Shown here piece after piece: positions 1,820-53,300 of a DNA stretch of 64,000 nt (its first letter is position 1; every line of letters begins with the position of its first letter). Below the pieces are notes generated by a model that was given only the letters and a program-made list of their open reading frames with translations, ran no database searches and was not told the DNA's origin. The DNA is from Eledone cirrhosa (lineage: Eukaryota), in contig OZ024741.1 in assembly GCA_964016885.1 (NCBI GenBank), positions 225,742,001-225,806,000 on the forward strand, written 5' to 3'. The position numbers and the translations under genes are program-made.

Positions 1820-3793
<1,974 letters not shown>

Positions 3794-4534: not shown

Positions 4535-4617
4535 AAATATATGTGTATATATATATGTATATATATTTATATATATATTTATATATAGATATGTATATAT
4601 ATATAATATATATATAT

Positions 4618-5340
4618 AAACGGAAAAAATGAAACGAAATTTCATTTCCCACTCTTAGTACGGCTATTACTTAAATATAACTATGTATACGTACATACAT
4701 ATATGTATACTGACGTACAGTACTATGTATATATATATATACATACATGCACACATATATACATGTACGTATGGATTCACCGGGATGTTTGTTTACAAAC
4801 ACTCCGAGCATTATAATAAATGTTCGGTGAATCCATACGTACATGTATATATGTGTGTATATACATACTATTGTACGTCTGTATACATATATGTATGTAC
4901 GTATACATACTTATATTTAAGTAACAGCCGTACTAAGAGTGAGAAATGAAATTTCGTTTCATTTTTTCCGTTTATCGTTTTCGGTGCACCCGGCCGATTA
5001 ACCCACTCGATATGCAAATTGGGCTACTCAGCCGTTAATATGCATAAAGAAAGTATATACTTTCAGACGTTCAATCATCTGGCAGGAAGGTATACGTTGC
5101 TGACGATAGCTAATAAGCTTGAAACTAGTACAGCGTTCCTTTGTCAGTGTTGAACAAACGAGCAACGATGGTTACTAGACACTACGGCTTAATACGGGAT
5201 GTGTGTTTACAAACACACCGAGCATTATATTAAATGTTCGGTGAATCCATACGTACATGTATATATGTGTGCATGTATGTATGTATATATACATACTACT
5301 GTACGTCTGTATACATATATGTATGTACGTATACATACTT
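4618..5340 (+). mobile_element. HHR-bearing retrozyme-like element, subfamily B (~414-bp period), inverted 5' piece plus >1 unit, in (TA)n
   Basis: 4618-4781 is the reverse complement of part of the unit. The direct repeat gggatgt.tgtttacaaac occurs at 4782 and 5196. HHR at 5094-5136. Confidence 0.75.
5094..5136 (+). ncRNA. Minimal type I hammerhead ribozyme
   Basis: acgttg-CTGACGA-tagc taataa gctt-GAAAC-ta-GTA-cagcgt. The core is complete and stem III is the palindrome ACTAGT. Confidence 0.8.
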
Positions 5341-5659
5341 ATATATATATATATATATATATATAAATTGAAACAAAATGAAAATGAAATTTCATTTCTC
5401 ACTCTTAGTATGGCACTTACTTAAATGTAAGTATGCATGTATACGTACATACATATATGTATACAGGCGTACAGTAGCATGCACATATATATATATATAT
5501 ATATACATATATACATACAGGTACACATACATATATGCACGTATCAGTTTAGCGGCGCTAACGTCGCTTTGTTCGTTTGTAAACAAACTGAACAGCCTGA
5601 ATTTATGCCATACGGTGTTAAGGCAACCACGTCACCTTTTTGTTCAACACTGACACAGG

Positions 5660-5704
5660 AACGATGTACTAGTTTCAAGCTTGTTAGCTATCATCAGCAC
5701 CGTT
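5660..5704 (-). ncRNA. Minimal type I hammerhead ribozyme (array copy)
   Basis: The minus strand reads aacggtg-CTGATGA-tagc taacaa gctt-GAAAC-ta-GTA-catcgtt. Confidence 0.82.
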
Positions 5705-6129
5705 TACCCATCTGCCAGATAGTTGAACGTTCGAAAGTATATACTTTCCTTATGAAAATTAACGGCTGAGCAGCCTAATTTGCATATTGAGTGAGTTAAA
5801 TCGGTCAGGCATACCGAAAACGATAAATTGAAACAAAATGAAAATGAAATTTCATTTCTCACTCTTAGTATGGCACTTACTTAAATGTAAGTATGCATGT
5901 ATACGTACATACATATATGTATACAGGCGTACAGTAGCATGCACATATATATATATATATATATACATATATACATACATGTGCATACAGGTACACATAC
6001 ATATATGCACGTATCAGTTTAGCGGCGCTAACGTCGCTTTGTTCGTTTGTAAACAAACTGAACAGCCTGAATTTATGCCATACGGTGTTAAGGCAACCAC
6101 GTCACCTTTTTGTTCAACACTGACACAGG

Positions 6130-6174
6130 AACGATGTACTAGTTTCAAGCTTGTTAGCTATCATCAGCACCGTT
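6130..6174 (-). ncRNA. Minimal type I hammerhead ribozyme (array copy)
   Basis: Identical to 5660-5704, 470 bp away. Confidence 0.82.
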
Positions 6175-6680
6175 TACCCATCTGCCAGATAGTTGAACGT
6201 TCGAAAGTATATACTTTCCTTATGAAAATTAACGGCTGAGCAGCCTAATTTGCATATTGAGTGAGTTAAATCGGTCAGGCATACCGAAAACGATAAATTG
6301 AAACAAAATGAAAATGAAATTTCATTTCTCACTCTTAGTATGGCACTTACTTAAATGTAAGTATGCATGTATACGTACATACATATATGTATACAGGCGT
6401 ACAGTAGCATGCACATATATATATATATATATATACATATATACATACATGTGCATACAGGTACACATACATATATGTACGTATACATGCATACTTACAT
6501 TTAAGTAAGTGCCATACTAAGAGTGAGAAATGAAATTTCATTTTCATTTTGTTTCAATTTATCGTTTTCGGTATGCCTGACCGATTTAACTCACTCAATA
6601 TGCAAATTAGGCTGCTCAGCCGTTAATTTTCATAAGGAAAGTATATACTTTCGAACGTTCAACTATCTGGCAGATGGGTA

Positions 6681-6725
6681 AACGGTGCTGATGATAGCTA
6701 ACAAGCTTGAAACTAGTACATCGTT
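6681..6725 (+). ncRNA. Minimal type I hammerhead ribozyme (array copy); predicted cleavage after 6718
   Basis: aacggtg-CTGATGA-tagc taacaa gctt-GAAAC-ta-GTA-catcgtt, with a 7-bp stem I containing one G.U pair. Confidence 0.82.
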
Positions 6726-7150
6726 CCTGTGTCAGTGTTGAACAAAAAGGTGACGTGGTTGCCTTAACACCGTATGGCATAAATTCAGGCTGTTCAGTTT
6801 GTTTACAAACGAACAAAGCGACGTTAGCGCCGCTAAACTGATACGTGCATATATGTATGTGTACCTGTATGCACATGTATGTATATATGTATATATATAT
6901 ATATATATATGTGCATGCTACTGTACGCCTGTATACATATATGTATGTACGTATACATGCATACTTACATTTAAGTAAGTGCCATACTAAGAGTGAGAAA
7001 TGAAATTTCATTTTCATTTTGTTTCAATTTATCGTTTTCGGTATGCCTGACCGATTTAACTCACTCAATATGCAAATTAGGCTGCTCAGCCGTTAATTTT
7101 CATAAGGAAAGTATATACTTTCGAACGTTCAACTATCTGGCAGATGGGTA

Positions 7151-7195
7151 AACGGTGCTGATGATAGCTAACAAGCTTGAAACTAGTACATCGTT
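7151..7195 (+). ncRNA. Minimal type I hammerhead ribozyme (array copy); predicted cleavage after 7188
   Basis: Identical motif, 470 bp after 6681. Confidence 0.82.
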
Positions 7196-7612
7196 CCTGT
7201 GTCAGTGTTGAACAAAAAGGTGACGTGGTTGCCTTAACACCGTATGGCATAAATTCTGGCTGTTCAGTTTGTTTACAAACGAACAAAGCGACGTTAGCGC
7301 CGCTAAACTGATACGTGCATATATGTATGTGTACCTGTATGCACATGTATGTATATATGTATATATATATATGTGCATGCTACTGTACGCCTGTATACAT
7401 ATATGTATGTACGTATACATGCATACTTACATTTAAGTAAGTGCCATACTAAGAGTGAGAAATGAAATTTCATTTTCATTTTGTTTCAATTTATCGTTTT
7501 CGGTATGCCTGACCGATTTAACTCACTCAATATGCAAATTAGGCTGCTCAGCCGTTAATTTTCATAAGGAAAGTATATACTTTCGAACGTTCAACTATCT
7601 GGCAGATGGGTA

Positions 7613-7657
7613 AACGGTGCTGATGATAGCTAACAAGCTTGAAACTAGTACATCGTT
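7613..7657 (+). ncRNA. Minimal type I hammerhead ribozyme (array copy); predicted cleavage after 7650
   Basis: Identical motif, 462 bp after 7151 (shorter internal TA tract). Confidence 0.82.
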
Positions 7658-7945
7658 CCTGTGTCAGTGTTGAACAAAAAGGTGACGTGGTTGCCTTAAC
7701 ACCGTATGGCATAAATTCAGGCTGTTCAGTTTGTTTACAAACGAACAAAGCGACGTTAGCGCCGCTAAACTGATACGTGCATATATGTATGTGTACCTGT
7801 ATGCACATGTATGTATATATGTATATATATATATATATATATGTGCATGCTACTGTACGCCTGTATACATATATGTATGTACGTATACATGCATACTTAC
7901 ATATATATATATATATATATATATATTATCTATTTATATATATCT

Positions 7946-12759: not shown

Positions 12760-12870
12760 TTAATATATAAATAAGTATTATATTTTTTGATACCCAGATT
12801 CCTGATGATTTCTAAAGAATGAAACAGTTCTAGTCCTGTAGAATCTCATCTATATTAAAACTTTTATACT
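12120..12870 (+). mobile_element. Penelope-like element 3' remnant (GIY-YIG C-terminal end, pyrimidine-rich UTR, HHR)
   Basis: LNKIRQAILEESSFIKRFL resembles the R..E..FI..F.P end of PLE GIY-YIG domains. A canonical HHR lies ~600 bp downstream. Confidence 0.5.
12796..12846 (+). ncRNA. Type I hammerhead ribozyme
   Basis: agattc-CTGATGA-tttc taaa gaat-GAAAC-ag ttctagtc ct-GTA-gaatct, with a perfect 6-bp stem I and stem III acag/ctgt. Confidence 0.78.
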
Positions 12871-39801: not shown

Positions 39802-42800
39802 TTTTCTCTTTCTCTTAATTTCGAGTATATTTTTTTGACCGGCCACCTTCCTGGTGGCAAGGTTGTAAAAGAAAAGAAATTGTCATCCCTTGAATCGCAA
39901 GAATGTTTTGCATATTTTGAAGGTGCCAGCTATCGCAGCCATTTGTAGACTATGAATTAGGGAGCTGCGCTTTTTGTCCGCAAATCCAAGTTCGGTCATA
40001 CTTTGGTCCAAGCGGGTTGGTATATAACCCGTAGCACCAATAATGATGGGTATGAAGCTAAAGGTGTATCTTGGATATTGGATTTGTAAACTCCTCATCA
40101 ATGGTCCGTAGATGTCCTCCTTCTCCTGTATTTTTCTGACAACGTTTACATCAAGTGGGCAGCTGATCTCCACAACAGAACACGTTTTCAATGTGTGGTC
40201 CCAAACTACAATATCAGGCCGGTTGTGCTTTAATTTGGTGGCAGTTTTTATTTTCAGGTTCCACCAGTATTCCTTAGTGCCATCTGTCTCAATATATTCT
40301 TCCTCGTTTGTTGTTAATTTTGTTTTCCGAAGTGCGTTCCAGATAGTTCTAGCTATCCCATCGTGTCTCATGGGGAGGTAGTAGCGAGATGACATTCTTT
40401 CGCAGCTGGCAACAATGTGGCTTACATCCTCGATCTTTGTTTTACATAACCTACATTTATTGTCAGCTGCTGGCCCTCCTCTTTTGTGCAGCAGATATTT
40501 GGTAGGGAGTTCTTGTTCCTGTATTGCATAGAGATATCCCTCAAGGTGTGATGTCATAAACTTGTCGGAACTCCATGCCAGGCTTTTTGAGTGGTTTATC
40601 CCCTCTATGGTCTGTGTTTTACGCCTCAAGTATCCATGCACAACTTTCTCTGTAAATTGGTCAATTTTTTTTTCTTGTTTGAACATTGAATAGGATCTTC
40701 CGATTTCTCTGGGTGAGAGATTTATATCAGGCTTTATTCCATATCTCTCCTCCAGATCAGTCGCTATTCTAATGATATTTCTTTTTTCATGCTCATAAAC
40801 CTGAGCAAGATGGTCGCCAACCTTTTTCCTCTGTTGAAGGTGTTGCTTCAGTGTTACTATCCGGGTCTCATATGTTGTTAATATTGATTTTAGACCCCGG
40901 CCACCTTCCTTGCGTGAGAAGTATAGCCTATCCACATCACCATTGATGTTAAAGTTCCCAGTAACACTGAGAAGTTTACGAGTTCTAACATCCATCTCAC
41001 TTAGTTCTTGCAATGACCAGTTCAGTAGGCCAAATGTTGGCGTTATAATTGGCACAGCATAGGTATTGTGGGCAATGTATTTGTTGTATGCTGACAGTTC
41101 TGATGACCATATTTTTTTTACTCTTCTGAGGTATTCAGTTCTGGTTCTCTCCTTATTTATGGGTCCATCATATCTGACATTCTCATCCTGTCCAAGATAT
41201 CTGTAGTTGTCACCTGACTGCAGAGGTTGTATTGTCAGGCCGTTCATATCTAGATTTCTAGAGGAGGGCACAGCTCTTCCACGTTTTACTGCCAAATATG
41301 CACACTTGGACTCACCAAATTTCATTTTGATGTCGGTTGAAAATTGTGTAATGAGGTCCAATTGTTTCTTGATGTCATTGATATTTGGCCCATACAACTT
41401 CAGGTCATCAACAAAGAAAAGATGGGAGATACTTCTGGGCCCACTTCTTTGTCCACCTTGTTTCCTGAGTAGGTAAGATAGTGGATTCAGTGAGAGAACG
41501 AAGAGTAGTACTGACAAGCTATCACCCTGAAAGATGCCCTTCTGGTAATGTATCCTATCAGTCTTAACCTGCTCCTTCTCACCTCTAAGGATCAAATTGG
41601 TGTACCAGTTCTTGGTCAGGCGTTCAACAGCAGCTACTAATGGTTGTGGGACTTTAGCTAACTGTAAAGCCTTAATAATCCACCCATGAGGTACACTATC
41701 AAATGCTTTTTGATAGTCCAGCCACACGACAGTCATGTTTCTGCGATTCTTTGTTGTTTTTTCCTGAATCATTTTGTTAGTTAGTAGGTGATCTATGCAA
41801 CCCCACACCTCCCTCTTTCCACCAGCTTGCTCAGGTGTTATGATGTTGTTGGTAGCACAGTGATCCTGTAAGAACAGGTTAAGGCACCCAGTATATAATT
41901 TATACATGATGTTTTGGCAGGCAATTGGGCGGTAATTTTTAGCAAGGGTGGTTTGGCTATTTTTGGGAATGAGGAGAGTAGTGGCAGTTGATAACCATCT
42001 GGGCAGTTCTTGTGTGCCCTTAATGGTTTCTGTAAACAGCCGTATAAGATCTTGCCGATAGAAAGTGAAATTCTTCAACCAGTATCCTGTAATGAGGTCT
42101 GGGCCTGGCGATTTCCTATTCGACATTTTCTGTAGAGCTGTTTCCAGTATTGACCCATCTATGTCATATTGTTTTGTCTGGACATGTTGGCAGTAGTCCT
42201 GTTCCAGTTGTTTTAGCCAATTAGCTTGTCTGTTGAATCCGTCATCCGTTTCCCATACAGATCTCCAGTAGTTCTCAACCTGTTCTTTTGAAGGGGTGTC
42301 GTTTACAGGGATTGAGCTTTTGCCACCGAAGCTGCGATAAACTGATTTAGGATCTCTGGCAAACAATCTATTTAGCACTTGTCGTTTATGGGCTGTTGAC
42401 TTATATTTTAGTCTTTCTGTTGTAGCTGTGAGTTGTTGTTTCAACTGGTGTAATTTGGAGTTCAAAGTTTTAAATTTGGTATCTCCAAATCGTCTCTCTA
42501 ACTTTTTCTTTAGGTCTTCCTGGTGTCGTGTGAAGTTTCTCTCTATGTTGCATTTCATAACGACTGCGATGTGTGAGATACTTCGTCTCAGGGACAAAAT
42601 TTTGGTTTTTAAATTTCGCATCCACGCTGGTTCAGGCTTTCTGTTTGTATCTTGATTGCGTGGTTTTAGATGTGTGTTATATGATAGCAATGTGACAGCT
42701 GAAACATATAACAAAACATTGAGCGTTTCAAATGTCGTTTCTACACCTTTAGATCGTATAGCCTTCAGATAATTGCCAGCTATTTCGTTCACCGCTTCCA

Positions 42801-43470
42801 ATTCCAATTTAGTGGGTTCTTTACTGACTCTAGTGTTGTATGGTCTGTCACTCACATTAAGGCTGTGTATCTCTTGAAACATATCGTTCCATATCACTTG
42901 TAGGGTGCCCACAAGTTTTTGGTGCTCTGTTTGTTCAGTAGAGTCATGAATTGCAGCCTCGTTGTTGATGTGGTGACAATTACTACTAGAGTCAGCTGAC
43001 CTTTCTCGCTGTTCTTCAGTGGAAGTGGGATGGATTTCAGCAAAATTGTTGGTGAGCTGTTCACTGTTAGATTTAGCCGGCCATTCTCTTTGTCTGTCAG
43101 TGGAGGTGGGGTGGTTGTCTACAAGGGCTGTATTTGTAGTATCACTCGATTCCGTTAGATGTATCAATTTACATCTAATGATACGTTTTGCCTGTTCATT
43201 TAGATGCTTTGGAGAAAAGTCTAATTCTGGGTGTTTGGAGTTCCATAAAGTTTTTAGCCTTTGCATAAAACCGAACTTTTGGGGTTCAGATTGTTTGTAT
43301 GCTTCATATAATTCTTTGTTAAGCTCGTAGCTCCACTGTATACAACGGTTGTAATTGCGATTTGGTCGAAGGAGACTTGTACTTTTTGCCATGATGAGTT
43401 CGTCTATTCACTAATATTTTGTATTTATTTTTTTTAAATAGTCGATGATCTTCTTTAAAAGTTACGACAA
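39802..43470 (-). mobile_element. R4/Dong-clade non-LTR retrotransposon, copy 1 (5'UTR truncated, ORF intact) in (TACA)n
   Basis: (TATG)n on both sides, single ORF. Confidence 0.93.
39883..43392 (-). CDS. 1169-aa reverse transcriptase + CCHC finger + restriction-like (PD-D/ExK) endonuclease
   Basis: KSPGPD, NYRPIAC, WLDYQKAFDSVPH, GIFQGDSLS, HLFFVDDLKLY, YRYLG, GGRGL, CRLC...HIVASC, RHD, NRPDIVVWD...VEISCP...KEDIY. Confidence 0.95.
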   Translation of the reverse strand: MAKSTSLLRPNRNYNRCIQWSYELNKELYEAYKQSEPQKFGFMQRLKTLWNSKHPELDFSPKHLNEQAKRIIRCKLIHLTESSDTTNTALVDNHPTSTDRQREWPAKSNSEQLTNNFAEIHPTSTEEQRERSADSSSNCHHINNEAAIHDSTEQTEHQKLVGTLQVIWNDMFQEIHSLNVSDRPYNTRVSKEPTKLELEAVNEIAGNYLKAIRSKGVETTFETLNVLLYVSAVTLLSYNTHLKPRNQDTNRKPEPAWMRNLKTKILSLRRSISHIAVVMKCNIERNFTRHQEDLKKKLERRFGDTKFKTLNSKLHQLKQQLTATTERLKYKSTAHKRQVLNRLFARDPKSVYRSFGGKSSIPVNDTPSKEQVENYWRSVWETDDGFNRQANWLKQLEQDYCQHVQTKQYDIDGSILETALQKMSNRKSPGPDLITGYWLKNFTFYRQDLIRLFTETIKGTQELPRWLSTATTLLIPKNSQTTLAKNYRPIACQNIMYKLYTGCLNLFLQDHCATNNIITPEQAGGKREVWGCIDHLLTNKMIQEKTTKNRRNMTVVWLDYQKAFDSVPHGWIIKALQLAKVPQPLVAAVERLTKNWYTNLILRGEKEQVKTDRIHYQKGIFQGDSLSVLLFVLSLNPLSYLLRKQGGQRSGPRSISHLFFVDDLKLYGPNINDIKKQLDLITQFSTDIKMKFGESKCAYLAVKRGRAVPSSRNLDMNGLTIQPLQSGDNYRYLGQDENVRYDGPINKERTRTEYLRRVKKIWSSELSAYNKYIAHNTYAVPIITPTFGLLNWSLQELSEMDVRTRKLLSVTGNFNINGDVDRLYFSRKEGGRGLKSILTTYETRIVTLKQHLQQRKKVGDHLAQVYEHEKRNIIRIATDLEERYGIKPDINLSPREIGRSYSMFKQEKKIDQFTEKVVHGYLRRKTQTIEGINHSKSLAWSSDKFMTSHLEGYLYAIQEQELPTKYLLHKRGGPAADNKCRLCKTKIEDVSHIVASCERMSSRYYLPMRHDGIARTIWNALRKTKLTTNEEEYIETDGTKEYWWNLKIKTATKLKHNRPDIVVWDHTLKTCSVVEISCPLDVNVVRKIQEKEDIYGPLMRSLQIQYPRYTFSFIPIIIGATGYIPTRLDQSMTELGFADKKRSSLIHSLQMAAIAGTFKICKTFLRFKG

Positions 43471-45435: not shown

Positions 45436-48400
45436 TTTTCTCTTTCTCTTAATTTCGAGTATATTTTTTTGACCGGCCACCTTCCTGGTGGCAAGGTTGT
45501 AAAAGAAAAGAAATTGTCATCCCTTGAATCGCAAGAATGTTTTGCATATTTTGAAGGTGCCAGCTATCGCAGCCATTTGTAGACTATGAATTAGGGAGCT
45601 GCGCTTTTTGTCCGCAAATCCAAGTTCGGTCATACTTTGGTCCAAGCGGGTTGGTATATAACCCGTAGCACCAATAATGATGGGTATGAAGCTAAAGGTG
45701 TATCTTGGATACTGGATTTGTAAGCTCCTCATCAATGGTCCGTAGATGTCCTCCTTCTCCTGTATTTTTCTGACAACTTTTACATCAAGTGGGCAGCTGA
45801 TCTCCACAACAGAACACGTTTTCAATGTGTGGTCCCAAACTACAATATCAGGCCGGTTGTGCTTTAATTTGGTGGCAGTTTTTATTTTCAGGTTCCACCA
45901 GTATTCCTTAGTGCCATCTGTCTCAATATATTCTTCCTCGTTTGTTGTTAATTTTGTTTTCCGAAGTGCGTTCCAGATAGTTCTAGCTATCAGATCGTGT
46001 CTCATGGGGAGGTAGTAGCGAGATGACATTCTTTCGCAGCCGGCAACAATGTGGCTTACATCCTCGATCTTTGTTTTACATAGCCTACATTTATTGTCAG
46101 CTGCTGGCCCTCCTCTTTTGTGCAGCAGATATTTGGTAGGGAGTTCTTGTTCCTGTATTGCATAGAGATATCCCTCAAGGTGTGATGTCATAAACTTGTC
46201 GGAACTCCATGCCAGGCTTTTTGAGTGGTTTATCCCCTCTATGGTCTGTGTTTTACGCCTCAAGTATCCATGCACAACTTTCTCTGTAAATTGGTCAATT
46301 TTTTTTTCTTGTTTGAACATTGAATAGGATCTTCCGATTTCTCTGGGTGAGAGATTTATATCAGGCTTTATTCCATATCTCTCCTCCAGATCAGTCGCTA
46401 TTCTAATGATATTTCTTTTTTCATGCTCATAAACCTGAGCAAGATGGTCGCCAACCTTTTTCCTCTGTTGAAGGTGTTGCTTCAGTGTTACTATCCGGGT
46501 CTCATATGTTGTTAATATTGATTTTAGACCCCGGCCACCTTCCTTGCGTGAGAAGTATAGCCTATCCACATCACCATTGATGTTAAAGTTCCCAGTAACA
46601 CTGAGAAGTTTACGAGTTCTAACATCCATCTCACTTAGTTCTTGCAATGACCAGTTCAGTAGGCCAAATGTTGGCGTTATAATTGGCACAGCATAGGTAT
46701 TGTGGGCAATGTATTTGTTGTATGCTGACAGTTCTGATGACCATATTTTTTTTACTCTTCTGAGGTATTCAGTTCTGGTTCTCTCCTTATTTATGGGTCC
46801 ATCATATCTGACATTCTCATCCTGTCCAAGATATCTGTAGTTGTCACCTGACTGCAGAGGTTGTATTGTCAGGCCGTTCATATCTAGATTTCTAGAGGAG
46901 GGCACAGCTCTTCCACGTTTTACTGCCAAATATGCACACTTGGACTCACCAAATTTCATTTTGATGTCGGTTGAAAATTGTGTAATGAGGTCCAATTGTT
47001 TCTTGATGTCATTGATATTTGGCCCATACAACTTCAGGTCATCAACAAAGAAAAGATGGGAGATACTTCTGGGCCCACTTCTTTGTCCACCTTGTTTCCT
47101 GAGTAGGTAAGATAGTGGATTCAGTGAGAGAACGAAGAGTAGTACTGACAAGCTATCACCCTGAAAGATGCCCTTCTGGTAATGTATCCTATCAGTCTTA
47201 ACCTGCTCCTTCTCACCTCTAAGGATCAAATTGGTGTACCAGTTCTTGGTCAGGCGTTCAACAGCAGCTACTAATGGTTGTGGGACTTTAGCTAACTGTA
47301 AAGCCTTAATAATCCACCCATGAGGTACACTATCAAATGCTTTTTGATAGTCCAGCCACACGACAGTCATGTTTCTGCGATTCTTTGTTGTTTTTTCCTG
47401 AATCATTTTGTTAGTTAGTAGGTGATCTATGCAACCCCACACCTCCCTCTTTCCACCAGCTTGCTCAGGTGTTATGATGTTGTTGGTAGCACAGTGATCC
47501 TGTAAGAACAGGTTAAGGCACCCAGTATATAATTTATACATGATGTTTTGGCAGGCAATTGGGCGGTAATTTTTAGCAAGGGTGGTTTGGCTATTTTTGG
47601 GAATGAGGAGAGTAGTGGCAGTTGATAACCATCTGGGCAGTTCTTGTGTGCCCTTAATGGTTTCTGTAAACAGCCGTATGAGATCTTGCCGATAGAAAGT
47701 GAAATTCTTCAACCAGTATCCTGTAATGAGGTCTGGGCCTGGCGATTTCCTATTCGACATTTTCTGTAGAGCTGTTTCCAGTATTGACCCATCTATGTCA
47801 TATTGTTTTGTCTGGACATGTTGGCAGTAGTCCTGTTCCAGTTGTTTTAGCCAATTAGCTTGTCTGTTGAATCCGTCATCCGTTTCCCATACAGATCTCC
47901 AGTAGTTCTCAACCTGTTCTTTTGAAGGGGTGTCGTTTACAGGGATTGAGCTTTTGCCACCGAAGCTGCGATAAACTGATTTAGGATCTCTGGCAAACAA
48001 TCTATTTAGCACTTGTCGTTTATGGGCTGTTGACTTATATTTTAGTCTTTCTGTTGTAGCTGTGAGTTGTTGTTTCAACTGGTGTAATTTGGAGTTCAAA
48101 GTTTTAAATTTGGTATCTCCAAATCGTCTCTCTAACTTTTTCTTTAGGTCTTCCTGGTGTCGTGTGAAGTTTCTCTCTATGTTGCATTTCATAACGACTG
48201 CGATGTGTGAGATACTTCGTCTCAGGGACAAAATTTTGGTTTTTAAATTTCGCATCCACGCTGGTTCAGGCTTTCTGTTTGTATCTTGATTGCGTGGTTT
48301 TAGATGTGTGTTATATGATAGCAATGTGACAGCTGAAACATATAACAAAACATTGAGCGTTTCAAATGTCGTTTCTACACCTTTAGATCGTATAGCCTTC

Positions 48401-49347
48401 AGATAATTGCCAGCTATTTCGTTCACCGCTTCCAATTCCAATTTAGTGGGTTCTTTACTGACTCTAGTGTTGTATGGTCTGTCACTCACATTAAGGCTGT
48501 GTATCTCTTGAAACATATCGTTCCATATCACTTGTAGGGTGCCCACAAGTTTTTGGTGCTCTGTTTGTTCAGTAGAGTCATGAATTGCAGCCTCGTTGTT
48601 GATGTGGTGACAATTACTACTAGAGTCAGCTGACCTTTCTCGCTGTTCTTCAGTGGAAGTGGGATGGATTTCAGCAAAATTGTTGGTGAGCTGTTCACTG
48701 TTAGATTTAGCCGGCCATTCTCTTTGTCTGTCAGTGGAGGTGGGGTGGTTGTCTACAAGGGCTGTATTTGTAGTATCACTCGATTCCGTTAGATGTATCA
48801 ATTTACATCTAATGATACGTTTTGCCTGTTCATTTAGATGCTTTGGAGAAAAGTCTAATTCTGGGTGTTTGGAGTTCCATAAAGTTTTTAGCCTTTGCAT
48901 AAAACCGAACTTTTGGGGTTCAGATTGTTTGTATGCTTCATATAATTCTTTGTTAAGCTCGTAGCTCCACTGTATACAACGGTTGTAATTGCGATTTGGT
49001 CGAAGGAGACTTGTACTTTTTGCCATGATGGGTTCGTCTATTCACTAATATTTTGTATTTATTTTTTTTAAATAGTCGATGATCTTCTTTAAAAGTTACG
49101 ACAAAGTTCTGTCAGAATCAAATTTAAAGTTATTCACAGCTTGGGTAATATTTCTTTTCAGTTAGTTTTTAATTCTACAACTGTGTTTTAAACGTTGTTC
49201 TTGAATCGTTTGAATCGAGAACAAAAAGAACCGTTACTTAGTATATTCCTTTACGAATGTAATATAATATAACAATGCTGTATTTATATGTTAAAGTTTA
49301 TGTATCATTCATATAAATAGGTGTTCTACAACATATTCACAACATTC
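45436..49347 (-). mobile_element. R4/Dong-clade non-LTR retrotransposon, copy 2 (longer 5'UTR, probably full length) in (TACA)n
   Basis: Same 3' junction as copy 1, ~320-bp 5'UTR, (TATG)n on both sides. Confidence 0.93.
45517..49026 (-). CDS. 1169-aa RT + CCHC + restriction-like endonuclease
   Basis: Differs from copy 1 at only three residues that I could see (VASC/VAGC, RHDG/RHDL, DVNV/DVKV). Confidence 0.95.
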   Translation of the reverse strand: MAKSTSLLRPNRNYNRCIQWSYELNKELYEAYKQSEPQKFGFMQRLKTLWNSKHPELDFSPKHLNEQAKRIIRCKLIHLTESSDTTNTALVDNHPTSTDRQREWPAKSNSEQLTNNFAEIHPTSTEEQRERSADSSSNCHHINNEAAIHDSTEQTEHQKLVGTLQVIWNDMFQEIHSLNVSDRPYNTRVSKEPTKLELEAVNEIAGNYLKAIRSKGVETTFETLNVLLYVSAVTLLSYNTHLKPRNQDTNRKPEPAWMRNLKTKILSLRRSISHIAVVMKCNIERNFTRHQEDLKKKLERRFGDTKFKTLNSKLHQLKQQLTATTERLKYKSTAHKRQVLNRLFARDPKSVYRSFGGKSSIPVNDTPSKEQVENYWRSVWETDDGFNRQANWLKQLEQDYCQHVQTKQYDIDGSILETALQKMSNRKSPGPDLITGYWLKNFTFYRQDLIRLFTETIKGTQELPRWLSTATTLLIPKNSQTTLAKNYRPIACQNIMYKLYTGCLNLFLQDHCATNNIITPEQAGGKREVWGCIDHLLTNKMIQEKTTKNRRNMTVVWLDYQKAFDSVPHGWIIKALQLAKVPQPLVAAVERLTKNWYTNLILRGEKEQVKTDRIHYQKGIFQGDSLSVLLFVLSLNPLSYLLRKQGGQRSGPRSISHLFFVDDLKLYGPNINDIKKQLDLITQFSTDIKMKFGESKCAYLAVKRGRAVPSSRNLDMNGLTIQPLQSGDNYRYLGQDENVRYDGPINKERTRTEYLRRVKKIWSSELSAYNKYIAHNTYAVPIITPTFGLLNWSLQELSEMDVRTRKLLSVTGNFNINGDVDRLYFSRKEGGRGLKSILTTYETRIVTLKQHLQQRKKVGDHLAQVYEHEKRNIIRIATDLEERYGIKPDINLSPREIGRSYSMFKQEKKIDQFTEKVVHGYLRRKTQTIEGINHSKSLAWSSDKFMTSHLEGYLYAIQEQELPTKYLLHKRGGPAADNKCRLCKTKIEDVSHIVAGCERMSSRYYLPMRHDLIARTIWNALRKTKLTTNEEEYIETDGTKEYWWNLKIKTATKLKHNRPDIVVWDHTLKTCSVVEISCPLDVKVVRKIQEKEDIYGPLMRSLQIQYPRYTFSFIPIIIGATGYIPTRLDQSMTELGFADKKRSSLIHSLQMAAIAGTFKICKTFLRFKG

Positions 49348-51266: not shown

Positions 51267-51324
51267 ATTATAAGATGGACGTTAAACGATGATGATGATG
51301 GTGATGATATAAATATATGACCCA

Positions 51325-51657
51325 TTAGCATTTTTCAAGGCAGAATTCTAGGAGAAGGAAAACTCTGATATAACACCTGCAACCCTGATGGTATCCAATG
51401 ATGTTGACTTGTCCTTGTTTTTGGTAAATATCATCTTGGATAAGAGAATGGGACAGGCTTTGTGCAGTGCCTTTGCTCACTAGAAAAGCTTCACGGCACA
51501 AGCATTGCTTTATATCTGGAGATCTCTCTGCACTTGTCGTCACATGGTACCATGGGCCCAGCACTATGTGTCAATAGTTGTCACAAGTGTAGTGTTTGTA
51601 CCAGAGTTTTCAAGTCGCTGGCTGGACTAAAAATCACACTCGTTCAGCGCATCGGTA
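51325..51657 (+). mobile_element. Fragment of the RTE-derived bipartite element
   Basis: Homologous to 44930-45260. Confidence 0.75.
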
Positions 51658-51669
51658 TATATATATATA

Positions 51670-52356
51670 TAAACGGAAAAAATGAAACGAAATTTCATTT
51701 CCCACTCTTAGTACGGCTGTTACTTAAATATAAGTATGTAAACGTACATACATATATGTATACAAACGTACAGTATTTTGTATATATATATATATACATA
51801 CATGCACACATATATATATGTACGTATGGATTCATCGAACATTTATTATAAAGCTCGGTGTGTTTGTAAACAAACATCCCGTATTAAGCCGTAGTGTCCA
51901 GCAACCATCGTTGCTCCTTTGTTCAACACTGACAAAGGAACACTGTACTAGTTTCAAGCTTATTAGCTATCGTCAGCAACGTATACCTTCCTGCCAGATT
52001 GTTGAACGTATATACTTACCTTATACATATTAACGGCATATTACTAAGAGTGGGAAATGAAATTTCGTTTAATTTTTTCCGTTTATCGTTCAACAATCTG
52101 GCAGGAAGGTATACGTTGCTGACGATAGCTAATAAGCTTGAAACTAGTACAGCGTTCCTTTGTCAGTGTTGAACAAACGAGCAACGATGGTTGCTGGACA
52201 CTACGGCTTAATACGGGATGTTTGTTTACAAACACACCGAGCATTATAATAAATATTCGGTGAATCCATACGTACATATATATATGTGTGCATGTATGTA
52301 TATATATATACATACTACTGTACGTCTGTATACATATATGTATGTACGTGTATATA

Positions 52357-52360
<4 letters not shown>
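51670..52360. mobile_element. Retrozyme-like subfamily B fold-back insertion with two HHRs (51940-51982 -, 52113-52155 +)
   Basis: Same unit as 4618-5340, same left start (aaacggaaaaaatg) and same right end (tatactta|(TA)n). Confidence 0.8.
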
Positions 52361-52501: not shown

Positions 52502-52604
52502 AAAATCAATCCTGATGTATTTATTGACAGTGGATTTTAAAAAACAAAAATATAATCTATATGAAAGTGAGGCTGGAAAAGGAAGAAGGAAAGGAAAATA
52601 TATA

Positions 52605-53300
52605 TATGACCGTCCATAAATCACAAATTAAAATACAGGAATACAGAAAGATTGCATTTAGTGAACATATCGCCAATTGTGCGCTCAACCAACATCGAAA
52701 CTTAAAAATTTTCCCCATTTACAAATTCATAGACAACGCTACTTTCATCCAACGTACCAATAAAGAAACACATTTCATTAATAAATTTCAACCAGTACTC
52801 AATGCGCTAAAATTCAGACCAATCTAAAACTGCAACAAACCATCAAACATTTACAAGAGTTATCTCCCTCACACCCTACCTAATCCTTTTTCTTAAATAA
52901 ATTAAATATCACCCAGCAAAAATTGCTCCCCCCTGAATATTAACTCTCTAAAAAGGGAAATCATATCAAACCTCAGTCCACCATTTGCCTCCATCACGGA
53001 ACCAAGGTTCAACTAAGCTCTCTTGCTATATTAACACATTTTGAACTGCTTAACTTCAATGACTGTGTTTGTAAATAACATTATTTTTTCTTCCACACTG
53101 ACTTTTTACGTTCCACATTATGCACGTTTTTTTTTCTTTTTCTTTTTTCTTTTCACTTCTTAAACCTTGTTTGTAAATAACATTATTCTTTCTGCAGCTT
53201 CCGTTTAACATGTGCGACACCACACTAATACATTTCACTATCATTTGATAATGCATATAAATGCTGAAACCGGTAATAGACAATAATTAAATATATAAAT
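52605..53300 (+). mobile_element. Penelope-like 3' fragment: GIY-YIG endonuclease C-terminus (52605-52827) plus UTR with degenerate HHR (~53238-53279)
   Basis: MTVHKSQIK...SEHIANC...KIFPIYK...RTNKETHFINKFQPVLN; downstream tTGATAA-gcat ataa atgc-tGAAAC-cg-GTA. Confidence 0.75.

Follow-up and report, generated by a model that had tools for sequence, protein, structure and literature searches.

A two-armed hammerhead array in Eledone cirrhosa, probably a non-LTR retrozyme insertion made by a Penelope-like enzyme

What puts five copies of one hammerhead ribozyme on opposite strands of a single short array? The question is raised by a stretch of 64,000 nucleotides of Eledone cirrhosa (contig OZ024741.1 of assembly GCA_964016885.1, forward-strand positions 225,742,001 to 225,806,000), hereafter the window, where near-identical units of ~470 bp are arranged in two arms, back to back. 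A first-pass annotation had called them a candidate retrozyme and had taken the bidirectional layout as a design for releasing the same monomer from either strand. The first of these proposals holds at the level of sequence: we find short non-coding tandem units in high copy, a hammerhead in five of five units and a self-paired monomer, as the definition of a metazoan non-LTR (long terminal repeat) retrozyme has it, and the element appears to be a new member of that known class. We are fairly confident of the following composite reading: the array is one retrozyme insertion, likely written into a (TA)n run by the reverse transcriptase (RT)-endonuclease of a Penelope-like element (PLE), and probably copied from a circular RNA of ~470 nt.

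Five identical type I hammerhead cores were located in the window, in agreement with the annotation: three on the plus strand (starts 6688, 7158 and 7620) and two on the minus strand (6167 and 5697), split over the two arms. The complete plus-strand motifs occupy 6674-6730, 7144-7200 and 7606-7662, with predicted cuts after GUA at 6718/6719, 7188/7189 and 7650/7651; those of the minus strand occupy 6125-6181 and 5655-5711, with predicted cuts at 6137/6136 and 5667/5666. Unit numbering below takes the first base 3' of the predicted cut as position 1. The left arm (5363-6484, minus strand) is 5'-truncated and runs from unit position 123 to position 314 through a partial unit, one full unit and a terminal part. 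The right arm (6474-7902, plus strand), likewise 5'-truncated, begins its exact match at unit position 226, ends at position 252 and comprises a partial unit, two full units of 470 and 462 nt, and a terminal part. Both arms share 11 nt at the inversion junction (6474-6484), and they are 98% complementary over 946 nt. Only the left outer end bears a tail of ~60 nt (5363-5424, minus strand; unit positions 253-314), while the right outer end is tail-less.

The predicted monomer or circle, 6719-7188 (+), is 470 nt long and has a branched fold closed by hammerhead stem I. It is identical over 470 of 470 nt to the unit at 6136-5667 (-), and the unit at 7189-7650, as previously noted, measures 462 nt; the latter differs by one substitution and a TA run 8 nt shorter. 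The array is flanked by (TA)n on the left (5340-5362), a run that also serves the tail-less end of a neighbouring insertion, and on the right (7903-7927), next to the tail-less end of the right arm. No open reading frame (ORF) of at least 150 amino acids (aa) occurs at the array locus. The GC content is 0.30-0.35, and the layouts of the examined loci of the same family, here family A, contain no LTR pair. No promoter turned up at the array, although no scan aimed at promoters was made.

The locus is not special. Its 31-nt ribozyme core has 10,718 exact copies in the genome of 3.0 billion bases, against none for the reversed control, so the motif is not a chance occurrence. The array is thus one copy among thousands and needs no special function. 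Apart from the window, the loci discussed below were sampled in the initial part of a single contig or reached through a handful of search matches, and their numbers describe samples rather than genome-wide counts.

Is the motif a ribozyme? Stem I has 6 bp, followed by an internal loop and a further 3-5 bp; stem II has four positions and a 6-nt loop 2; stem III is reduced to 2 bp with a palindromic 2-nt loop. These features replace the earlier description of the hammerhead as minimal: by its sequence it is a canonical type I motif, distinct from the minimal hammerhead ribozyme (min-HHR) of PLEs (PMC4209133). In family A the base of stem II is a U.U mismatch. The Rfam search suggested with the annotation returned no match at gathering score in the window, and at E up to 10 no hammerhead was among the best 150 of 249 matches; the abundant microRNA rows in its output are TA hairpins. 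The isolated 61-nt motif folds no better than shuffled sequence (z -0.23). In view of these two null results, support for the ribozyme was sought in the covariation of its relatives.

The fetched genome loci contain 66 distinct hammerhead versions, distributed over four related families, A to D. Across 21 of these 66 haplotypes, hand-picked and mostly recurrent, the type I structure leaves 95.8% of cells paired, and 11 of 16 pairs have changed on both sides. None of 500 shuffles scored as high, in a test that the kinship of the sequences inflates, and alignments slid out of register are 31-49% paired. Across the families, an invariant core contrasts with stems I and II of changed sequence, and the loop of stem III passes from UA to GC in family D. 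At loci picked by their tail rather than by the ribozyme, core and cut triplet are intact at 37 of 39 sites in family A and at 87 of 93 in family C. Altogether, the sequences suggest selection on the ribozyme in all four families, A-D.

Folding of the entire unit gives a branched structure with 68% of its bases paired (z -9.1 as a linear and -8.3 as a circular molecule), with a long TA-rich hairpin at positions ~123-240 contributing much of this score. A putative dimer-dependent hammerhead and, likely, a ~470-nt circle are supported by the anatomy of the motif, by covariation and by analogy with metazoan retrozymes (PMC7229834).

How the array was inserted can be read from its ends. In 54 ribozyme-anchored loci of family A, the 3' ends fall at unit positions ~252-255 or 309-314, nearly always in TA runs, and the 5' ends are variable. 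Family C has its 3' ends at ~229-235 and 304, with a tail of ~70 nt. In the predicted fold, tail-less sites of both families map within the loop of a small hairpin or next to it, and tail sites immediately 3' of a second, longer hairpin. The 54 loci include 33 two-armed insertions, 22 of them resolved at both ends, and all 22 have one tail and one tail-less end; the same holds for 15 of 15 resolved insertions among 18 two-armed ones of family C. Thus, 37 of 37 resolved insertions use one site per arm, the sites being ~60 nt apart. End types were counted from alignments: four tail-less/tail-less rows in a motif-based count were regular-expression misses on variant tails, and two family A rows, an apparent exception and an apparent confirmation, were classed as unresolved since their ends fall within the TA run of the unit itself. 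Inversion points vary between insertions.

This end rule bears on the assembly itself. Inverted repeats and TA runs are hard to assemble, and no contig crosses the inversion junction in the four sequencing runs examined, as a fold-back chimera of the repeat would have it. Yet the outer ends differ by rule in 37 of 37 cases, unlike the product of a fold-back read, and the arms begin at different unit positions. With the same layout and end rule recurring across many loci, the assembly artefact that the annotation had named as a possible refutation is very unlikely, and we give it a negligible probability.

The same features are those of PLEs. PLEs integrate as partial tandems truncated at the 5' end, where an inverted truncated copy is often attached; one end bears a tail of 30-40 bp, and microsatellites, including (TA)n, are favoured as targets (Craig et al. 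2021, on the Hydra clade, PMC8557442). In vitro, the protein of the anole PLE Poseidon cleaves AT-rich DNA on both strands and begins cDNA synthesis at two sites within its RNA, the tail being the interval between them (Frangieh et al. 2024, PMC11167929). Like these elements, the family has two fixed internal 3' ends, variable 5' ends, an inverted truncated copy and a microsatellite target, and an ORF-bearing PLE of the same genome (L067) shows the same layout. A link to PLEs, absent from the earlier reading, explains the fixed ends, the inversion and the (TA)n site; by analogy with Poseidon, the tail of the array would be the stretch between two reverse-transcription start sites. It is very likely that the family was inserted into the genome by a PLE enzyme.

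The two-armed layout is accordingly the usual insertion scar of the family, found in 33 of its 54 loci, and a common one among PLEs as a whole (PMC8557442); its reading as a design for monomer release is not supported. The highly improbable alternative, that the array is a functional bidirectional cassette releasing its monomer from either strand or making regulatory double-stranded RNA, can point to the 98% complementarity of the 946-nt arms and to intact ribozymes on both of them. Against it stand the default character of the scar and its variable inversion points, and nothing marks the window copy as conserved or special. Moreover, read-through from either flank would first produce the antisense arm; by base pairing, this RNA could mask both ribozymes of the minus strand and roughly two of the three on the plus strand, and would tend to block cleavage.

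Which PLE could be responsible? The best candidate is a Hydra-type element with an intact 809-aa ORF (L073:208-2637), which is found in hybrid insertions with the family. The ORF bears the marks of the Hydra clade (DKT, RLRW, a CxCX5C linker, CxxC and CxH motifs) and is present in at least 109 copies that are 98-100% identical. Among the nearest Atlas clusters of the protein, HTH_animal and GIY-YIG families are found on part of the members; in pairwise BLAST it matches another PLE protein weakly (E 1e-4). Two hybrids join family A directly to the PLE ORF, with no TA spacer and with the remainder of the PLE missing: one combines the tail end of the PLE with the tail-less end of family A (L032), the other the tail end of family A with the tail-less end of the PLE (L035), an outcome predicted beforehand. 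Two more (L023 and L048) are hybrids of family A with a short element, family E (30,777 exact copies), and obey the same end rule.

Three results tell against this particular assignment. Pfam gave no RT match on the 809-aa protein, and comparison of the unit with the terminal repeat of the Hydra-type PLE, in 30 PLE loci, revealed no homology in sequence. Joints also occur with a second PLE family (at L171, and at one loose end in run X6, matched by eye), so the Hydra-type PLE is a candidate partner only. The window also opens (1-1360) with the 3' remnant of a related Hydra-type copy, which terminates in TA at ~1358 and has its own hammerhead-like motif at 1263.

The units might instead be 5'-truncated terminal repeats (pLTRs) of an autonomous PLE yet to be found, which we regard as very unlikely. 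Ends, inversion and target are the same as in PLEs, Xenopus retrozymes match PLE pLTRs, with 24 of 57 families matching known elements, nearly all PLEs (Li, Clavereau, Pollet, bioRxiv 10.64898/2026.07.22.740005), and our partner search covered few PLE families. However, among 211 arm 5' junctions, 166 lead into the family itself, 19 into TA runs and one into a PLE ORF: the arms loop from unit to unit. The unit is a terminal repeat in none of 30 Hydra-type PLE loci, and the ribozyme is canonical, unlike the minimal PLE type (PMC4209133). No autonomous element with the unit as its terminal repeat emerged from 32 upstream flanks compared all-against-all, the 30 Hydra-type loci and the 211 junctions, within the few PLE families covered. 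The unit as an autonomous PLE in its own right was rejected, the array being without an ORF and the arms without a common upstream ORF.

The nature of the RNA template is the next question. Arm 5' ends start near the cut site in 0 of 89 cases in family A and 2 of 109 in family C, where an even distribution would give 1.5 and 1.2. This lack of a pile-up indicates that the template is not a cut linear monomer. By contrast, 8 of 20 family E arms share a single fixed hexamer as their start, a loose control because these arms were selected through a motif close by.

The composition of the arrays points further. Units of family C differ by 0.34 substitutions per pair within arrays (386 pairs) and 0.40 across arms, against 11.4 between arrays, where none of 1,694 pairs is identical. 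Both arms of one array together hold 18 identical units, and young arrays of 18-20 units are nearly uniform. In another (L143), a two-unit period with a core mutation in every second ribozyme is as expected of a dimer circle. In the window array, all six copies that cover a certain site carry a substitution found in none of 55 other insertions. We consider rolling-circle copying of an RNA circle moderately probable, and DNA-level expansion may also act on the arrays.

A number of observations run counter to a circle of ribozyme-cut RNA. Family A is less homogeneous, with 2.3 substitutions within against 12.7 between arrays, and identical pairs number 8 of 24 within arrays (one being a single unit in two overlapping loci) and 9 of 796 between them. 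Higher-order periods of ~4 (L154) and ~6 units (L181) occur with mostly intact ribozymes (8 of 10 apparent dead-ribozyme labels in L181 are an offset artefact), and a 3-unit pattern is restricted to one arm of L141. Such periods are more simply explained by duplication of DNA, and long arrays alone are thus no proof of rolling-circle copying. The U.U at the base of stem II should weaken the family A ribozyme. In the literature, eight of nine Xenopus retrozyme dimers showed no cleavage in vitro (bioRxiv 10.64898/2026.07.22.740005), and ribozyme mutants left insertion by the anole PLE unimpaired in vitro (PMC11167929).

It is possible, if unlikely, that the PLE enzyme copied an uncut linear multimer transcribed from tandem source arrays, with growth of the arrays occurring later in DNA and any circles arising as a by-product. 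For the anole PLE in vitro, the main substrate was unprocessed RNA and the ribozyme could be dispensed with (PMC11167929); the higher-order periods in L141, L154 and L181 fit this scenario, and an uncut multimer likewise predicts no pile-up of 5' ends at the cut site. But copying a linear multimer can only shorten arrays, and 18-20 near-identical units on both arms, with array-specific variants, would need a bottleneck of one unit followed by fast growth. The conservation of the ribozyme, with compensatory changes in four families, further argues that cutting matters to the element.

Under the preferred account, insertion of a circular RNA by a PLE enzyme, tandem units would be transcribed and cut after GUA by ribozymes paired as dimers through their palindromic stem III, and the monomer would be ligated into a circle. 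The PLE protein would then cut both strands of a TA run and start cDNA (complementary DNA) internally at two sites, one per strand. Each cDNA would travel round the circle until it drops off, and joining of the two cDNA ends would produce the back-to-back arms; the array would be the product of two cDNAs primed from both strands of one cut TA run. Productive monomers would more likely come from transcription starting inside an arm, or from one-armed copies.

A more specific version we put forward tentatively, at rather less than even confidence. Here the arrays would be genomic records of rolling-circle reverse transcription of ribozyme-made circles by a PLE enzyme acting as an asymmetric dimer: both strands of the cut TA run would be primed, one at each internal start site, and the retrozyme circle and the enzyme's own mRNA could be loaded in the same event. 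If true, this would close the gap at the integration step in the life cycle of animal retrozymes, account for the one-ended tail of PLEs and name a matched pair of enzyme and substrate.

The sister family C (L136-L152 and L153-L192, e.g. G000:C1:30831600-30840870) has a unit of ~467 nt, 5,212 exact ribozyme copies, a G-C pair at the base of stem II and arrays of at least 20 units. Its sequences suggest that it is younger and cleaner, and a better test object, than family A, which appears older and noisier. In one of its arrays (L136/L137), three clustered A>G changes at unit positions 336-341 are present in all 18 units. The cluster hints at adenosine-to-inosine editing of the RNA intermediate before insertion, which the wider counts do not support: among template-level variants, 5 A>G stand against 2 T>C in family C (p 0.28) and 2 A>G against 5 T>C in family A; among single-coverage variants of family C the numbers are 7 A>G and 1 T>C (p 0.04, one of several tests).

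Subfamily B, diverged from the array unit and with a compensatory change in stem I, has two-armed insertions at window positions 4616-5340 and ~51660-52360, each with its tail on the left and its tail-less end on the right. The first of them lies directly left of the array, which sits within its terminal TA run, and contains one diverged hammerhead (5086-5142, plus strand; core at 5100); sister-type cores are also found at 51976 (-) and 52119 (+). Family D is a two-armed tandem of ~305-nt units (L102:7140-9001) with a related hammerhead, whose stem III palindrome has a GC loop. Family E is a ~140-nt element (30,777 exact matches of its 31-nt motif; L001:1770-1960, L037, L090 and others) in which no hammerhead was seen; its two-armed insertions lie in TA runs, with a fixed 5' start and a tail of ~80 nt, and it looks like a linear parasite, of the short interspersed element (SINE) type, of the same PLE machinery.

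Sequencing archives contain the array stretch in 20 rows from 15 studies, with no RNA run among those listed. For family A, 18 runs with 14 organism labels carry at least half of its words, and by sequence the family appears common to related species or labels. Among four sequencing runs, three of them from these 18, variant contigs number thousands in X3 and 23 in X6, with one 470-nt contig in X1 and none in X23; a contig of unit length cannot discriminate a circle from a tandem.

Other repeats share the window. Ten further hammerhead-like cores, at 12802 (+), 17714 (+), 19888 (-), 21539 (+), 22363 (-), 37653 (+), 38033 (+), 38386 (-), 52495 (-) and 59544 (-), represent at least four other repeat families, several of them as inverted pairs. 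A GIY-YIG remnant lies at ~52600-52820. Two near-identical intact ORFs of 1,174 aa (39883-43407 and 45517-49041, minus strand) stand in tandem; they belong to a non-LTR retrotransposon with an RT and a C-terminal restriction-enzyme-like region, which we take to be R2/R4-like. Another dispersed element forms a 487-bp tandem repeat of 1.9 copies at 2744-3691, beside TATG microsatellites, which like TA microsatellites are abundant in the genome; no hammerhead core was found in this repeat, part of which recurs at ~51320-51650 (-).

How does the element compare with known systems? In the accessible literature we found no account of this family, of a tail rule in retrozymes or of hybrid insertions, some of which repeat databases and supplements (the family lists of PMC8557442, the life-cycle figure of PMC7229834) may hold. 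A squid genome has 235 hammerhead matches (PMC6962438). The closest counterparts are the metazoan non-LTR retrozymes (Cervera and de la Pena 2020, PMC7229834), which also consist of AT-rich, non-coding tandem units, have a highly self-paired monomer and occur in genomes that contain PLEs; their hammerhead is likewise of canonical type I, its stem III short and palindromic. Axolotl HHR_Amex2 has the same 2-bp stem III and the same U.U at the base of stem II, and its cleavage is weak in the monomer but good in the dimer (PMC7229834). In contrast, the array unit is longer (470 nt, against 170-400 nt), and the accessible part of that source describes no back-to-back arms, tail or (TA)n targeting and names PLEs only as a candidate mover; for those retrozymes expression and circles have been demonstrated, whereas the present element is known from its sequence.

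Vertebrate non-LTR retrozymes have been described as PLE derivatives, from co-occurrence and pLTR homology, by authors who favour local amplification of DNA for the tandems (bioRxiv 10.64898/2026.07.22.740005). The link drawn here rests instead on insertion footprints and hybrids, no pLTR homology having been found. With PLEs, the family shares 5' truncation, partial tandems, an inverted 5'-truncated copy, a tail at one end and the (TA)n target (PMC8557442), as well as internal start sites in a stem-loop downstream of the hammerhead (PMC11167929). It differs from them in lacking an ORF, in its canonical hammerhead and in its longer tail (~60 nt, ~70 in family C, against 30-40). The choice of start site by anole Poseidon in vitro is equal between strands (PMC11167929), whereas the two arms always differ in the array family.

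The minimal hammerheads of PLE terminal repeats (Cervera and de la Pena 2014, PMC4209133) have a palindromic stem III and a dimer model in common with the array motif. They differ by a long stem II, a short stem I and a poorly defined loop 1, where the array motif has a canonical 6-bp stem I and conserved loops; their definition includes a stem III that is absent or vestigial. The same source notes opposite-strand hammerhead pairs 100-700 bp apart in Schistosoma and proposes RNA circles as templates for cDNA of more than unit length. A route of retrozyme integration through a circle and a PLE was proposed in 2014 and 2020 (PMC4209133, PMC7229834), and its mechanism is said to remain to be worked out (bioRxiv 10.64898/2026.07.22.740005). 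Compared with these systems, the array family carries unusually direct footprints of an integration step so far only proposed for animal retrozymes, namely exact predicted start sites, a rule of one tail per insertion, arrays of uniform units, and hybrids formed with a PLE that is intact and was recently active, and the question of integration becomes testable with a named protein and a 470-nt RNA.

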